Of a stretch of DNA of 64,000 nt, positions 4,357 to 39,785 are shown in pieces. Made by a program: the position numbers and the translations under genes. Source of the DNA: a phage. The first letter of the stretch is position 1. Every line of letters starts with the position of its first letter. The notes under the pieces are model-generated. The model worked only from the letters and a program-made list of their open reading frames with translations. It was not told the DNA's origin and searched no databases. Location: the sequence record OZ335963.1. One strand, written 5' to 3'.

Positions 4357-7053
4357 TCAGCCAAACAGGAAGTCTAACGAAGCTTTTTCCTCATAGTCCA
4401 TACCTGCTGATTCACACATGCCAGCAAGCGGTTTAACAAACGATTTTTGGAACAAAGTTGAGTAGTCAATCCAAGACAGTACATCAGAACGAATTTCTTT
4501 TGGAAGTTCTGTACCTGATGGCCAAGCAATGCACTTGTCACCAAATGGATTTCCTTCACGTAATGGAAGAACCATTACCTTATTTCCATCCAAAATTGGA
4601 GCTACACCTAAACCGTTAACAGCTCGACGATAAGTTAGCACACCACGAATATGGAATGGACATTTAAATCCTGGCCAGCCTTTATCATCATATTTCGCTA
4701 TATCGTTCGCAGTTTTTACTTCAGCAATAACTTTATAATCAAGTTGACGATATTCTTTCTCAAAGTTCTTGTAATATTCTTGGACGGACTCTTCGCCTTC
4801 CTGAAGAATACGACGAATACTTTCTTCGAGAGCTTCTTGTACTGCTTTTGGTGTTGAACTCTGCTGAGTTTCCATACCCATGATTTTTAGATGCGGTTCA
4901 GCAAATCGCTTATCTTCCATATCATAAACGTTCAGAGCATAACGTTTTTTCGCTTTCCAAAATCCACCAACACCCTTTGAACCAAGTGGAGGGCAAGAAA
5001 TAGCTTCACGGTCCATATGCATCAGATGCTCGCGGTTATTCATATAATCACATAACTCACGATATGCAACATCAATCATAGGTTCCATCTTTTTCTTACC
5101 AAACTGATTCATGAATTCAACTAAATCATTTTGTTCTTTAAAGCGGTCAAGACCTACTTTTTCAATAACTTTATCTACACAAACGTATACCGAATCAGTA
5201 TCACCTGCTGCGATGAAATCTTCACCATTAGTTCCACACACTTTGTTTAGATACTCATTAATTTTACGAGCAATCCACTGAATACCGACTTGACCGAAAA
5301 TTGTGATAGCAGTAGCATTTCGCAAATCATAGTAGCGGAAATGAATATTACCAAGAGCACCATAAAGACTGTTAATAAGAATTTTACGGTTCAGCTGATT
5401 TGTGTTAGCGAGTGTAGCTGCTTTTTCGCATTCTTCGATCAGACTATTAAGAACAGATTCGGTGTAATTCGATAATTCGTTTAAGAAATCATCACTGAAC
5501 TTAACATATCGTTCAACTTCTGGTTTAGTTGAGCAAGACCCTGCGCCTTTCATAATAATCTTTTTAATAGCTTCGGCATTCATTTCTTCCGCGAACATTT
5601 TCTTTTTCCAATCTTTACGCTGGAAAAATACTTTAGCGATTTCCTTTGGAATGATACCTTCTTGGTGCTTATCATACATCCATCCATTCGGAGAACAAGA
5701 ATATTCATCACTTGGCTTAGGAGCTGTTCCTGCGATATATTCATGAATTGGATGAACTTTAAACTGCCCGCGAATAGTCTCAGGACTAATGTTAACCTGA
5801 CGAATAATGCTAGGATACAGAGACGTCAAGTCAAAACTCATAATGTATCGACGAGCAATCGGTTTAGGTTCAAACACAAATGCACCTGGAAAACTCTGTT
5901 TAACGTGCGAACCTTGTTGAGGAATAACCTTATGTTCACCTTTCAGTGAGTTAAAAATAATAGCATCCCAAGTTTTAATAGGACTCATTACACCAGAAAA
6001 AGGCATTTTAGCGTAATAAGACATACTTAAAACTAGATCGATAAACCCACGAATTTTATCAATTGCTTGAACTGATTCTACGTCAATGATGTTATAACTA
6101 ATGTATCGTTGATGATTAGTCTCACGAAGTTTATTAATAGGACCATCGTACGGCAATTTACCTTTTTTGGTTTCATGTTGAGCAACTGATTCCAAAGAGA
6201 ACGATGGCAAATTAGTAAATGCGAATTTCTTGTATAAATCTAAATAATCAAGAATAGATACGCCATCAATAGAATAAATTTCTTTGCTACCGTACATATT
6301 TTGAATTAGTTTAGATTTTACTCGACCGATTGGAGAGAAGCGTTTCATACTACGTTCACCGAGAACCATTTTAACGCGATTCATGATATACGGAACGTCA
6401 AATCCCTCAATATTCCAACCGGTAAAAATAGCAGGTCGTTTCTGTTCCCAGAGATTAATATATTCCATGAGCATATCACGCTCATTATCAAATGGCATAT
6501 AAATTACTCGGTCAAGAATTTCTTGAGGAACTTCATCACCACCTTCACAGTCAAGCTTAGCAGCTAACTTTGCATCCCATTTTGATACTGAACCGTACAT
6601 TGAATTCAATAAATCAAAGACGTAAAAACGATCGTCAATTGAATCATAATGAGTGATAGCATCAATTTCATATTCTGCTTTCATTGGGTCAGGAAATTTA
6701 TCGCCAGTAACCTCAATGTCACAGTTAGCTACACGAACAAATTTTCGGTCATAAACAATTTCTGAACCATATGTATCACTGATATAAGCGAGTTTAAAAT
6801 CGTTCATACCGAGAGCTTCGAGACCGATGTCTTCCATTCGCTTCATCCAGTCTCGCGCATCTTTCATTGATGGAAATTTTTGAGGAGCGCAATTTTTACC
6901 ATAAATGTCTTTGTATTTTGACTCTTCCTTACAATGCCTAAACATAGTCGGAAGATATTCTACTTCGCGAGTACGTTCCTTTCCGTTTTCATCAATATAA
7001 CGCTCAACAATATTATTTCCGACTGTTTCGATAGAGATATAAAATTCTTTCAT
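4357..7053 (-). CDS. 43: DNA polymerase gp43 (family B)
   Basis: 898 aa, matches remembered T4 gp43 end to end (exonuclease and polymerase motifs). Confidence 0.97.
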   Translation of the reverse strand: MKEFYISIETVGNNIVERYIDENGKERTREVEYLPTMFRHCKEESKYKDIYGKNCAPQKFPSMKDARDWMKRMEDIGLEALGMNDFKLAYISDTYGSEIVYDRKFVRVANCDIEVTGDKFPDPMKAEYEIDAITHYDSIDDRFYVFDLLNSMYGSVSKWDAKLAAKLDCEGGDEVPQEILDRVIYMPFDNERDMLMEYINLWEQKRPAIFTGWNIEGFDVPYIMNRVKMVLGERSMKRFSPIGRVKSKLIQNMYGSKEIYSIDGVSILDYLDLYKKFAFTNLPSFSLESVAQHETKKGKLPYDGPINKLRETNHQRYISYNIIDVESVQAIDKIRGFIDLVLSMSYYAKMPFSGVMSPIKTWDAIIFNSLKGEHKVIPQQGSHVKQSFPGAFVFEPKPIARRYIMSFDLTSLYPSIIRQVNISPETIRGQFKVHPIHEYIAGTAPKPSDEYSCSPNGWMYDKHQEGIIPKEIAKVFFQRKDWKKKMFAEEMNAEAIKKIIMKGAGSCSTKPEVERYVKFSDDFLNELSNYTESVLNSLIEECEKAATLANTNQLNRKILINSLYGALGNIHFRYYDLRNATAITIFGQVGIQWIARKINEYLNKVCGTNGEDFIAAGDTDSVYVCVDKVIEKVGLDRFKEQNDLVEFMNQFGKKKMEPMIDVAYRELCDYMNNREHLMHMDREAISCPPLGSKGVGGFWKAKKRYALNVYDMEDKRFAEPHLKIMGMETQQSSTPKAVQEALEESIRRILQEGEESVQEYYKNFEKEYRQLDYKVIAEVKTANDIAKYDDKGWPGFKCPFHIRGVLTYRRAVNGLGVAPILDGNKVMVLPLREGNPFGDKCIAWPSGTELPKEIRSDVLSWIDYSTLFQKSFVKPLAGMCESAGMDYEEKASLDFLFG

Positions 7054-36020: not shown

Positions 36021-36602
36021 CTAACCGAGCTTTTTAGTTAATTCATTCCAATGTTTTCTACACAAAGAAACATAAATTTCATCACCAATACAGATTTGAT
36101 TACCTTCTTTAACTGGCGTTCCATCTTCCATTAATCGAGCTGTCATAATAGCTTTTTTACCACAATGACAAACTGCTTTTAGTTCAATAAGTTTATCTGC
36201 AATCGCCAAAAGTTCTTTAGAACCTTCAAATAATTTTCCAGCGAAATCAGTCCTTAGCCCATAAGCCATAACAGGAACATTATATGTATCAACAATTCGG
36301 CTTAATTGATGCACCTGTTCAGTTTTTAAAAACTGGGCTTCATCTACAAATACACAATGAATATCTTTTTGTGCTTCAGCCCATTTATAGAACTCAAAAA
36401 TATCCATATCATCCGTAATAATATTCGCTTCCTGTTTAATTCCAATGCGAGAAACGACTTCACAGACAGAATCACGAGTATCAATAGCAGGCTTAAGAAC
36501 TAATACACTCATTCCGCGTTCTTTATAATTATGCGCAGCAGTCAAAAGAGAAGCAGATTTTCCAGCATTCATTGCTGCATAAGTAAAAATTAAACTCGCC
36601 AT
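36021..36602 (-). CDS. tk: thymidine kinase
   Basis: 193 aa; P-loop GKSASLL and C-terminal zinc-ribbon cysteines typical of type II TK. Confidence 0.93.
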   Translation of the reverse strand: MASLIFTYAAMNAGKSASLLTAAHNYKERGMSVLVLKPAIDTRDSVCEVVSRIGIKQEANIITDDMDIFEFYKWAEAQKDIHCVFVDEAQFLKTEQVHQLSRIVDTYNVPVMAYGLRTDFAGKLFEGSKELLAIADKLIELKAVCHCGKKAIMTARLMEDGTPVKEGNQICIGDEIYVSLCRKHWNELTKKLG

Positions 36603-36611
36603 ATCACCTTC

Positions 36612-36797
36612 TTAAAGCGTATTCACATAAGCTATTAATTCGTTTTCTTTCTTATCAAACCGATCAGCAAATTCTTCTTGCTGATCGGGAGATAGCGGGC
36701 CATATTCATCATAAAAGGTGTTTGCTTCTGTATGCTCATCTAGAAGTTCATGGATAAGCTCAAACAATTTATCTTTTTGTTCTTTACTCAGACTCAT
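36612..36797 (-). CDS. hypothetical protein
   Basis: 61-aa acidic ORF. Confidence 0.45.
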   Translation of the reverse strand: MSLSKEQKDKLFELIHELLDEHTEANTFYDEYGPLSPDQQEEFADRFDKKENELIAYVNTL

Positions 36798-36967
36798 ATA
36801 TTAATTTCCAGGAGTTTTAAAATAATTCGCTTTTGCTTAAATATTTCCACAGTTAAATGATCAGTATCTTTTTGACCGATTCCAATGGCAAAACCTTTAT
36901 TAACAGCGAGTTCAATTAAATTATCAAGTTCACGTAACACTTCATATTGTAGCTCAGAACTATTCAT
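36797..36967 (-). CDS. small ORF, 56 aa
   Basis: MNSSELQYEVLRELDNLIEL...; ATGA-type overlaps at both ends; not in ORF track. Confidence 0.35.
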
Positions 36968-37176
36968 TTCGGTTTACCTTCTTTAACGAAATCAGGATAA
37001 GGATAAAATCCTGAATAAAATCCTTCACCTTTATGATTGATACATCCTTTATTAGAACAATAGCACCAATAATCGAAATCACAAGCCATTTCATCATTAC
37101 ATAAAGCAAAAACAACCGGCCATTCGCACTTTTCGCAGTGGGCATTTTTAAGAATACTAGTTTGACTCATAACCAT
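36964..37176 (-). CDS. small Cys-rich protein
   Basis: Start taken at MVMSQ; nine cysteines in 70 aa (CEKCEW...CNDEMACDFDYWCYC...CINH). Confidence 0.45.
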   Translation of the reverse strand: MVMSQTSILKNAHCEKCEWPVVFALCNDEMACDFDYWCYCSNKGCINHKGEGFYSGFYPYPDFVKEGKPK

Positions 37177-37379
37177 GTAACCTTTAAGCAATATTCTTCT
37201 ACGTGCTGTTTACGACCTTTCTTATCAATAAAGGTATATTCAACGAATGTTCCAATATAATCTTTATCTACATCATGCGGACTATTAATTGGGCATTTAG
37301 TACGGCAAATGCGTTCCCATTGACGAATAATTTCCACTTTGTTTTTAGGATCAAACGGATGCGGGTAATGTACTTTCAT
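37167..37379 (-). CDS. hypothetical protein
   Basis: 70-aa ORF. Confidence 0.45.
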   Translation of the reverse strand: MKVHYPHPFDPKNKVEIIRQWERICRTKCPINSPHDVDKDYIGTFVEYTFIDKKGRKQHVEEYCLKVTWL

Positions 37380-37830
37380 AATCCACCACTATTAAATCAA
37401 TATCAGGAGTAAACATGTCGATTAATTTAGAAACCTTATCCCAATCACCGCCAGCAATACCACAACCTATGCGTGGAATGTAAATTACTGGTTTAAACAA
37501 AAGGGTTTCTGCCTGTTGATTTAATTCTATCATACAGTTTACTAAAGCACCATAATCAAGATTAGGACCCGGTTCGTATTGCGTATACAGGTTATAGCAT
37601 ATACCAAATCCCGTAGGACTATGTTTAAAAACAATAGACATATCGCCTAATTTATCGCGAGAACCGTACTCGGTAGTGGTTTTATCTATTTCTAAAATTT
37701 TGGGATAGGCTCTTGCTAATTGACCTGCTACACCAGAGCCCATTGTGTGGAAGCAATTGCACCCGTGCGCAATAATATTACCTTGAAGAAATAGGGCGAC
37801 AATATCGCCCTTGATATATTTTACAATCAT
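37351..37830 (-). CDS. macro-domain protein (ADP-ribose binding/processing fold)
   Basis: KGDIVALFLQGNIIAHGCNCFHTMGSGVAGQLARAYP and IYIPRIGCGIAGGDW resemble macro-domain motifs. Confidence 0.6.
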   Translation of the reverse strand: MIVKYIKGDIVALFLQGNIIAHGCNCFHTMGSGVAGQLARAYPKILEIDKTTTEYGSRDKLGDMSIVFKHSPTGFGICYNLYTQYEPGPNLDYGALVNCMIELNQQAETLLFKPVIYIPRIGCGIAGGDWDKVSKLIDMFTPDIDLIVVDYESTLPASV

Positions 37831-38174
37831 CTAGTACTCAATCCTCGATTATAAGAATCTACTAAACGGTCAACCATTGAATGACAAGCGGCTTTATCTT
37901 TCTCCTCCGCAACTGAACATTCTAAGGTATTCCACTTTTTAGCATATCGTTTTAACAATGTATCATTTTTATATCTGCTTGATTTATCTCTTTCTCCGTC
38001 TTTATATGCATATATTAATTTCTGTGCAAATTCAGCTTGGCATGCTTTATTTTTCCCGCAATAATCCGCGGCAGTACGGTTTACATACTCTCTAATTTCA
38101 GTATATGATGTATCTGCTGATGCAGAAGCAGAAAATGAAATTAATCCTATACATAAAACCAAAATTTTAGTCAT
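37827..38174 (-). CDS. secreted small protein (signal peptide)
   Basis: MTKILVLCIGLISFSASASA signal peptide; 115 aa with four cysteines. Confidence 0.5.
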   Translation of the reverse strand: MTKILVLCIGLISFSASASADTSYTEIREYVNRTAADYCGKNKACQAEFAQKLIYAYKDGERDKSSRYKNDTLLKRYAKKWNTLECSVAEEKDKAACHSMVDRLVDSYNRGLSTR

Positions 38175-38719: not shown

Positions 38720-39181
38720 TCATTGAGTTTTAATTACTGCTTTAGAAGCCTTTCCTGGTAAACGACGACTGTTGATAATTGCCATCCTGCATTGAAGCGA
38801 CGGGTCTTTGAACTTCGCATTAGGTTTACAAACTGTAAATCCAAGCCAAAGATTTCCATCTGTGATTTCTAAACGTCCAGGACGATATTCAACCCCATCA
38901 ATAAAATCCTCGTCAATGTCAGGACGTGGAGGCATACTCAGGAATTCATTAACTTCTAAAACATGGTCTTTTATTTTATGGAATAATTCAAAAACATATG
39001 TCTCATCAATCTCCCGTTGAATTGCACGATCAAGAAGATGCTGAGAATATTTTAGATGAAACGATGAGACTCCTGCTGCTTTTGATGCCTCACGAATCTC
39101 ATTGTTAATTTGACGAAACTCCGACTCAAAGTGACGACGGAGCTTATTTCGACGGATAAAAACTTCTGTGTTGATAGTCAT
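38720..39181 (-). CDS. regB: RegB endoribonuclease
   Basis: 153 aa, matches remembered T4 RegB. Confidence 0.9.
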   Translation of the reverse strand: MTINTEVFIRRNKLRRHFESEFRQINNEIREASKAAGVSSFHLKYSQHLLDRAIQREIDETYVFELFHKIKDHVLEVNEFLSMPPRPDIDEDFIDGVEYRPGRLEITDGNLWLGFTVCKPNAKFKDPSLQCRMAIINSRRLPGKASKAVIKTQ

Positions 39182-39194
39182 GTTATTCTCCTCT

Positions 39195-39245
39195 TAACTG
39201 ATAGAAAAATTATACCACAGTCAAGAGGAAAAGTAAACAGTTATT
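39195..39245 (-). promoter_or_regulatory. early promoter upstream of regB
   Basis: Minus-strand GTTTAC, 17-nt spacer, TGGTATAAT. Confidence 0.65.
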
Positions 39246-39519
39246 CTTTAAATCTAATCAATTTATTCATAGACTTTGAAACTTCTGCACGGACCTCATG
39301 TAGGTTTTTAAGCTGTTCAAGACGTTGCTCATAGTAAGCAATTTCATCTTCTTCAAGACAGTCCTGTGAGTCTTCTTTAAGATAACGTGCATAGTCCTGG
39401 AAAGCTTTACGGACTACTTCCTGGAAGTCATCAAGACTTTGAATTTTCTTAGGAGCAACAGATACACGACGAGGGGCAGTATAATACTCATAACCAAACC
39501 CTGCGCTTAATTGAGCCAT
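39241..39519 (-). CDS. hypothetical protein
   Basis: Start taken at MAQLSAGFG (92 aa), TAATG-coupled to the upstream ORF. Confidence 0.45.
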
Positions 39520-39785
39520 TAGTATTTTTCCTCTGGTTGAAACACAGCACGACAAGCCCACATACTGGCTTCTTTGAGTTTCGTTTTAGCAATAGTTAAC
39601 TGATCGAGGCTTTCAGCATAATTCTTCGTGAATTCACAGTCTTCACAATTATCTAGTGCTTCCCAGAATTCATCATATAAAGCATCAAAGATAAGTCCTA
39701 AACGAACTTCAGCATCTTTGATAGCATTCACTTTACTGATTTTATCGTCAGTATGTGGCTTATAACCTTTAATGTCTTCAATCAT
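39519..39785 (-). CDS. hypothetical protein (vs.4 position; candidate Acb2-like)
   Basis: 88-aa ORF between regB and the GrcA-like gene; assignment by position only. Confidence 0.4.

Follow-up and report, generated by a model that had tools for sequence, protein, structure and literature searches.

Tk.4 of a T4-like phage: a stand-alone macrodomain protein and probable orphan antitoxin against DarTG2

The gene tk.4 (adfM) was analyzed in the window, that is, the whole stretch of 64,000 nucleotides of Tequatrovirus DNA taken from record OZ335963.1. Its product is probably an orphan, antitoxin-like ADP-ribosylglycohydrolase, which would remove the ADP-ribose added by the toxin DarT2 from thymidines of single-stranded phage DNA by means of a glutamine-based, SCO6735-like site. 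The gene and its likely role against DarTG2 are already known. New here is a detail seen in the alignments, the apparent replacement of the DarG/TARG1 lysine by Gln84 in the Tk.4 family, together with a TARG1-like short adjoining loop.

The tk.4 gene

The minus strand carries an open reading frame (ORF) of 159 codons with an ATG start and a TGA stop, while the plus strand of the same positions is riddled with stops. The initial annotation had described a 159-residue product here with two glycine-rich motifs, and both were found exactly as quoted: GDIVALFLQGNIIAHGCNCFHTMGSGVAGQLA corresponds to residues 8-39 and IYIPRIGCGIAGGDW to residues 116-130 of the translation. The strand, which had been left unstated, is the minus strand.

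37351..37830, minus strand: tk.4/adfM coding sequence, stand-alone macrodomain protein (ORF translation, Pfam Macro, AlphaFold2 and position of T4 tk.4)
37842..37846, minus strand: Shine-Dalgarno-like GAGGA, 11 nt 5' of the tk.4 ATG (sequence reading; same in T4)
37827..37830, minus strand: ATGA in which the tk.4 start codon and the vs stop codon overlap (ORF coordinates and sequence)

Based on homology, the product belongs to PHROG 335 (E=1e-71), and it matched Pfam Macro (PF01661) with 33.9 bits against a curated gathering cut-off of 22 (E=3.4e-8, model positions 2-117 of 118). The ratio of nonsynonymous to synonymous substitution rates (dN/dS) between the window gene and the T4 version was 0.18, a sign that a real protein is under purifying selection. 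The gene call is confirmed, far beyond chance. The ATGA overlap with vs is an arrangement typical of translational coupling, which may operate here.

Fold and class of the product

An AlphaFold2 model, built from an alignment of 91 homologues, had a predicted local distance difference test score (pLDDT) of 94.5 and a predicted template modelling score (pTM) of 0.89. The predicted structure had the macro fold, in which helices flank a mixed beta-sheet. When the PDB was searched with the sequence, BT1257, yeast Poa1p, SCO6735, DarG of M. tuberculosis and human TARG1 were recovered, and the top ranks of a Foldseek search with the model were TARG1, Poa1p, BT1257 and DarG. All nearest structural neighbours belonged to the TARG1/DarG/SCO6735/BT1257/Poa1p class, from which the other classes were clearly separated. 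Three ADP-ribose-binding elements, G8-D9, MGSGVA (residues 30-35) and GCGIAGG (residues 122-128), are conserved in the family and align with those of TARG1, SCO6735 and DarG. The N-terminal Gly-Asp of macrodomains contacts the adenine of ADP-ribose in solved structures.

37804..37809, minus strand: codons of Gly8-Asp9, the conserved N-terminal Gly-Asp (aligned with the G-D of TARG1, SCO6735, BT1257 and ALC1; G8 at least 90% conserved)

On its sequence and predicted structure, Tk.4 of the window is a stand-alone macrodomain of the TARG1/DarG/SCO6735 (ALC1-like) class. The macrodomain call of the initial annotation was thus borne out by the Pfam score, the predicted fold and the motifs. Degradation of NAD-derived immune signals had been proposed there as well. 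Such degradation, or a sequestration of these signals, for example the ADP-ribose-derived messengers of Thoeris, is extremely unlikely: all of the closest relatives, by sequence and by fold, are glycohydrolases that act on macromolecular ADP-ribosylation, and no experimental hint of such an activity was found. Neither this role nor a partnership with the phage's own ADP-ribosyltransferases, also proposed, received any support.

Residues of the putative active site

Twelve residues were invariant in all 91 homologues, which extend down to 38% identity: Gln84, H22, G23, N25, C26, G33, A35, D49, N80, Y82, P119 and W130. H22, N25 and G33 lie in the first loop, and N25 aligns with Asn23 of the PhiKZ protein gp104, which is also named AdfM.

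37726..37767, minus strand: codons 22-35, HGCNCFHTMGSGVA, first active-site/glycine-rich loop (family alignment, reference alignment, PMC13309987)
37579..37581, minus strand: CAA codon of Gln84 (MAFFT and three hhalign comparisons; invariant in 91/91)
37441..37476, minus strand: codons 119-130, PRIGCGIAGGDW, second glycine-rich (diphosphate-binding) loop (near-identical to PRIGCGLAGG(T/K)W of SCO6735/BT1257)

In a MAFFT L-INS-i alignment containing the 91 homologues, the column of Gln84 held Gln85 of SCO6735, the glutamine of the BT1257 segment MIGQHG and that of ALC1, and the catalytic lysine of TARG1 (K84), DarG (K80) and PhiKZ AdfM. The reference protein sequences were taken from PDB alignments, the TARG1 sequence being identical to PDB 2lgr over residues 2-152. 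Comparison by hhalign with SCO6735 (98.7% probability) placed a gap of five residues in the phage protein right after the glutamine, while that with TARG1 (98.3%) was ungapped from the catalytic strand through Tyr93 (Q84=K84, Y93=Y93). With TaqDarG (97.4%) Gln84 again fell in the Lys80 column. MAFFT and these three hhalign comparisons agree with one another, and the secondary-structure register of the model fits them.

Other alignments were set aside. Pairwise phmmer alignments with BT1257 shifted the catalytic strand, bringing the BT1257 glutamine opposite Cys78; in this same stretch, where confidence is low, an hhalign alignment with PhiKZ gp104 was off register by two residues. A C-terminal-only query against SCO6735 and DarG, aimed at the Gln84 region, returned the second glycine loop only.

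SCO6735 lacks the Lys and Asp residues, is inactive as the Q85A mutant, and clears thymidine-linked ADP-ribose in DNA faster than DarG or TARG1 (PMC9411070). The N23A mutant of PhiKZ AdfM is weakened (PMC13309987).

Role against DarTG2

Support for a role of tk.4 in resistance comes from T4. In a preprint of November 2025, a T4 transposon library was grown on a DarTG2 host and tk.4 was the single significant hit; a clean tk.4 knockout was sensitised to DarTG2, and the gene was renamed adfM, for a macrodomain anti-DarT factor (10.1101/2025.11.20.689424). Removal of ADP-ribose from DNA by T4 Tk.4 was proposed, not demonstrated, in that work (10.1101/2025.11.20.689424). Within the collection of papers searched for Tk.4 biochemistry, the HIDEN-SEQ preprint was the sole work tying tk.4 to an ADP-ribosylation function. 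The deletion test on a DarTG host suggested by the initial annotation has accordingly been performed by others in T4, and the reversal of host ADP-ribosylating defences that it proposed has genetic support in an orthologue which is 58% identical to the window protein, the chemistry being conjectural. Earlier work had found that T2 and T4 lacking adfA or adfN remain resistant to DarTG2 (PMC11825919), which implied a further factor; the tk.4 result fits this.

In the favoured mechanism, DarTG2 would be triggered and DarT2 would add ADP-ribose to thymidines of single-stranded phage DNA, blocking replication. Tk.4 would hold the ADP-ribose by its Gly-Asp and its two glycine-rich loops and cleave the ribose-thymine bond, giving back replicable DNA. 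The reaction probably resembles that of SCO6735, where the glutamine would orient both a water molecule and the distal ribose, and not the lysine-dependent reaction of DarG and TARG1. As the lesion in the DNA would itself be repaired, the protein would act as an orphan antitoxin needing no contact with the toxin. Hydrolysis of thymidine-linked ADP-ribose would be expected of any Tk.4 protein, and the window version presumably shares the role of T4 Tk.4, its hydrolytic activity and its catalytic residues. A suggestive analogy is provided by PhiKZ gp104, a protein of an unrelated lineage and equally acidic, with proven activity: in vitro it strips DarT2-made ADP-ribose from a TNTC oligonucleotide, and it protects the phage (Cell Reports 2026, PMC13309987).

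Several observations weigh against this mechanism. The catalytic lysine of DarG and TARG1 is absent, and Asp125 of TARG1 is Ala126 in the window protein. Two features of SCO6735 tied to its activity on DNA, the mobile loop with Lys89 and Val25, are also missing. The window protein is acidic (predicted isoelectric point, pI, 5.03, close to 5.05 for PhiKZ AdfM), whereas SCO6735 (9.7), the DarG macrodomain (9.0) and TARG1 (8.6) are basic. ALC1, a non-catalytic reader of ADP-ribose, has the same glutamine, so that this residue alone is no proof of catalysis, and the equivalence of Gln84 is suggested by sequence and profile alignments together with the secondary-structure register of the model. Finally, the genetic data are from a preprint, and the version tested in T4 is just 58% identical to the one in the window.

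Some of these points would suit a protein which neutralises DarTG2 by binding and blocking DarT2 ("interaction-inhibition"), or by reading ADP-ribosylated DNA, with no hydrolysis. SCO6735 also blocks DarT by binding, and its dead Q85A mutant still inhibits DarT in vitro, more than the DarG and TARG1 mutants do (PMC9411070). The glutamine shared with the reader ALC1 points the same way, a pI of 5.0 is as expected of a DNA mimic, and other phage anti-DarT factors, such as ICP1 AdfB, work by direct binding. This explanation is nevertheless unlikely. H22, N25, Q84 and both glycine loops are invariant or nearly so among the 91 homologues, which is better accounted for by conserved catalysis than by binding specific to the toxin; the DarT-binding C-terminal domain of DarG is lacking; and PhiKZ AdfM, just as acidic, is a true hydrolase.

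The annotation of the T4 protein suggests another activity. The T4 record (NP_049723) describes tk.4 as "phosphatase; contains A1pp phosphatase motif", and tk.4 orthologues were already described as matching A1pp (macro) when T4-like genomes were compared in 2006 (PMC1524935). In records with the window version at 99.4% identity the product appears as a "macro domain protein", a "phosphatase" or a "hypothetical protein". Where PHROG and RefSeq say "phosphatase", this label goes back to the former domain name A1pp and not to an assay. That Tk.4 is an enzyme acting on small molecules, either an ADP-ribose-1''-phosphate phosphatase like yeast Poa1p, which it resembles in sequence and fold, or an O-acetyl-ADP-ribose deacetylase, is very unlikely: the label reflects domain naming, and such an activity would leave the DarTG2 phenotype unexplained. 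The RNA repair pathway of T4, to our knowledge, generates no ADP-ribose-1''-phosphate. Hydrolysis of DarT2-made ADP-ribose on DNA remains the most probable function of Tk.4.

Divergence and exchange of tk.4

The window gene and T4 tk.4 (compared at 5923..6390 of the T4 stretch L001) have diverged deeply. The proportion of differing synonymous sites (pS) was 0.70 and the synonymous distance (dS) about 2.1, compared with dS values of 0.09-0.15 in tk, vs, vs.1 and regB.

about 37320..37815, no strand: tract of low DNA identity to T4 (0.33-0.83; flanks 0.93-1.0; sliding and per-gene identity, dS)

The saturated dS, the dN/dS of 0.18 and the near-identical flanks indicate an old, selectively maintained variant acquired through recombination, rather than decay or a recent burst of change. 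To judge by the identity profile, 37320..37815 is a swap of gene variants bounded by recombination.

Both versions are widespread. About 315 phage records hold the window type, counted from 80% identity upward. The T4 type occurred in 224 records, including T2, at 90% identity or more and in another 159 at 80-90%. Intermediate versions (62-82% identity) were present in metagenomes. The window protein agrees with the family consensus at 40 of the 40 columns which are at least 80% conserved. T4 Tk.4 departs from it at four of them (A126G, G127K, D129N and I137L); the second glycine loop accounts for three of these changes, and Lys127 of T4 occurs in just 3 of the 91 homologues. The genetically tested T4 protein is therefore the less typical version. 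Gln105 is the sole residue private to the window protein (Leu in phage ime09 and other records); the column is variable and no consequence is evident. Homologues were identified by tblastn in 2794 phage records, from Straboviridae and from other large myoviruses of enterobacteria, Vibrio, Pseudomonas, Acinetobacter and Aeromonas, and 776 protein clusters of a metagenomic collection matched. The bacterium Pelagimonas has a homologue which, like SCO6735, stands alone in the chromosome; a DarT-like or toxin partner was sought among the neighbours of this gene and none was found.

The exchange of anciently diverged versions among near-identical genomes would fit proteins with differing targets. 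So would the unusual second glycine loop of T4 (A126G, G127K, D129N), and SCO6735 and TARG1 are also active on proteins (PMC9411070). It is quite unlikely, even so, that the main substrate of Tk.4 is an ADP-ribosylated macromolecule other than DarT2-modified DNA, such as RNA or protein carrying ADP-ribose from other toxins of the host or from the phage enzymes Alt, ModA and ModB, possibly in a version-specific manner. Sensitivity to DarTG2 is the sole recorded tk.4 phenotype, and T-even phages with tk.4 are reportedly still strongly restricted by the mRNA ADP-ribosyltransferase system CmdTAC. T4 Alt, ModA and ModB modify arginine, and we know of no cleavage of the arginine-ADP-ribose linkage by this class of macrodomain.

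More tentatively, and with considerable doubt, the two types may be old variants which are swapped because the targets they neutralise differ, be these variants of DarT2 or substrates on a DNA base, RNA or protein. The Tk.4 family would then form its own branch of the TARG1/DarG group, marked by the glutamine, the short loop and acidity, with a chemistry strictly neither DarG- nor SCO6735-like. If this is true, tk.4 is a swappable specificity cassette in an arms race over ADP-ribosylation.

The practical value of these results lies in annotation: most of the approximately 315 records with the window version say "hypothetical protein" or "phosphatase", while the evidence points to an anti-DarTG2 enzyme. 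An invariant glutamine in the place of the DarG lysine makes Gln84, Asn25 and His22, not a lysine, the targets for mutagenesis, and the presence of at least two deeply diverged versions in near-identical T-even genomes is a natural experiment on target range. The overall picture of tk.4 is unchanged; what is added is the Gln-for-Lys replacement, the recognition of a shared AdfM name and the sharply bounded exchange of versions.

Genomic setting

Over the 3.2 kb around tk.4 the window is 98-99% identical to many phages of Escherichia and Shigella that resemble T4. As in T4, tk.4 is located between tk.3 and vs on the same strand, and phage ime09 is annotated with the same tk.3-tk.4-vs order. The neighbours of tk.4 being vs and tk.3, there is no adjacent darT gene.

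37167..37379, minus strand: tk.3, 70 residues, downstream neighbour, its start overlapping the last 29 nt of tk.4 (92.9% identical to T4 Tk.3; PHROG 2008)
37827..38174, minus strand: vs, valyl-tRNA synthetase modifier, 115 residues, upstream neighbour (100% identical to T4 Vs; PHROG 1256)

On a wider scale the gene lies between tk (36021..36602) and regB (38720..39181). Placement in the "tk-regB interval" by the initial annotation was correct, since tk, tk.3, vs, vs.1 and regB all match T4 genes; identities to the T4 proteins were 99.5% for Tk, 92.9% for Tk.3, 100% for Vs, 99.4% for Vs.1 and 99.3% for RegB.

A potential RNA structure was identified within the gene.

37793..37811, minus strand: perfect GC-rich 8-bp hairpin (AGGGCGA-TAT-TCGCCCT) with a U-rich run after it, inside tk.4 codons 7-13 (terminator-like scan, fold)

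The stem is locally strong (centroid -12.9 kcal/mol), with a z-score for the region of just -1.08, and T4 has the same sequence, with UUUU as its tail, which leaves no covariation to score. One public record annotates a "terminator" under the tk.4 gene. The hairpin could, with some uncertainty, attenuate read-through from vs or stabilise the mRNA.

Upstream, the best sigma-70-like match of the region (TTTACT-17-TATAAT with an upstream TG, 10/12) was located at 39209..39237 on the minus strand, a short way upstream of regB. A regB-vs.1-vs-tk.4-tk.3 transcript, of genes overlapping at their start and stop codons, could arise from it. A sigma-70 promoter scan of the region showed no enrichment, giving 19 sites compared with 20.9 expected from shuffled sequences.

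The stretch from tk to tk.3 (36612..37191, minus strand) differs from T4, and T4 tk.1 is absent. It contains orf61 (36612..36797), whose product is just 54% identical to T4 Tk.2, orf57 (36794..36967, PHROG 3452) and an ORF for a Cys-rich protein (PHROG 2306), the latter two having no counterpart in the compared T4 stretch. The Cys-rich ORF probably begins with an ATG at 37170 that overlaps the stop codon of tk.3; this gives 68 residues, among them the motif CEKCEW...CNDEMACDFDYWCYCSNKGCINH. In phage ime09 the layout is different again (tk, tk.2, tk.3, tk.4), so that this is a variable region of small genes.

Beyond regB, a homolog of vs.3 was found at 39241..39561 (minus strand). The mechanical ORF has 106 residues from a GTG, while T4 Vs.3 has 92 and is 97.8% identical over these 92; the real start is probably an internal ATG. 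An ORF of 88 residues at 39519..39785 (minus strand) is 95% identical to T4 Vs.4, which is equated in the literature with Acb2, an anti-CBASS sponge for cyclic nucleotides. Two anti-defence genes would thus be located less than 2 kb apart in this early-gene cluster.

Comparison with known systems

DarG proper was considered and rejected. The window protein scored 29.7 bits with NCBIfam NF048014, for which the cut-off is 250; the match spanned 2-142 of the 338 model positions, and the protein has no C-terminal DarT-binding domain, catalytic lysine or darT neighbour. The DarG model of PADLOC gave E=1.6e-7, for the macro part only. Where the DarG macrodomain (PDB 5m3i, 5m31, 7omu) has Lys80 in T. 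aquaticus, the window protein has glutamine. In common with DarG and TARG1 it has a short loop, and its first loop is MGxG with a Thr before it. Human TARG1/OARD1 (PDB 4j5r, 2lgr), which can also reverse the DarT modification (PMC9411070), was the top Foldseek match (E=1.3e-9, template modelling score 0.72-0.83); its catalytic pair Lys84/Asp125 corresponds to Gln84/Ala126.

PhiKZ gp104 of the chimalliviruses is likewise a stand-alone acidic phage macrodomain of about 160 residues, in which the conserved N23 corresponds to N25. It differs in belonging to a separate, DarG-like lineage with an FPTK lysine, and in being imported into the phage nucleus, a structure absent in T-even phages. Only a local BLASTP match of 33 residues was obtained between the two, and hhalign gave 95.7% probability at 22% identity; the window protein and PhiKZ AdfM are not orthologues. 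The name AdfM was given independently to these two non-orthologous macrodomains (PMC13309987; 10.1101/2025.11.20.689424), which invites annotation mix-ups. ICP1 AdfB, also considered as a macrodomain, was found not to be one.

SCO6735 of Streptomyces coelicolor (PDB 5e3b) and BT1257 of Bacteroides (PDB 2afc/2fg1), products of bacterial chromosomal genes and not of phage genes, have in common with the window protein the glutamine, an H-x-C-N motif and a PRIGCG(L/I)AGGxW loop. Their mobile loop is five residues longer and carries Lys89, at the site of which the window protein has Gly88. Val25 of SCO6735, the Val/Ile mark of its subclass, is the family-invariant Gly23 in Tk.4, and WGKG is replaced by MGSG. 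Val/Ile25 has been described as specific to SCO6735 homologues (PMC9411070).

The orthologue in T4 is Tk.4/AdfM (NP_049723), with 58% identity over 155 residues in an ungapped alignment (E=2e-71) and the same PHROG. The two genes have in common the slot between tk.3 and vs, the strand, a near-equal length (155 and 159 residues) and the invariant residues including Gln84. They differ at 65 of 155 residues, with saturated synonymous sites. The window protein has four extra C-terminal residues, and its gene overlaps tk.3 by 29 nt compared with 4 nt in T4. In the second glycine loop the window protein carries the family consensus GCGIAGGDW, whereas T4 has GAGIGKGNW.
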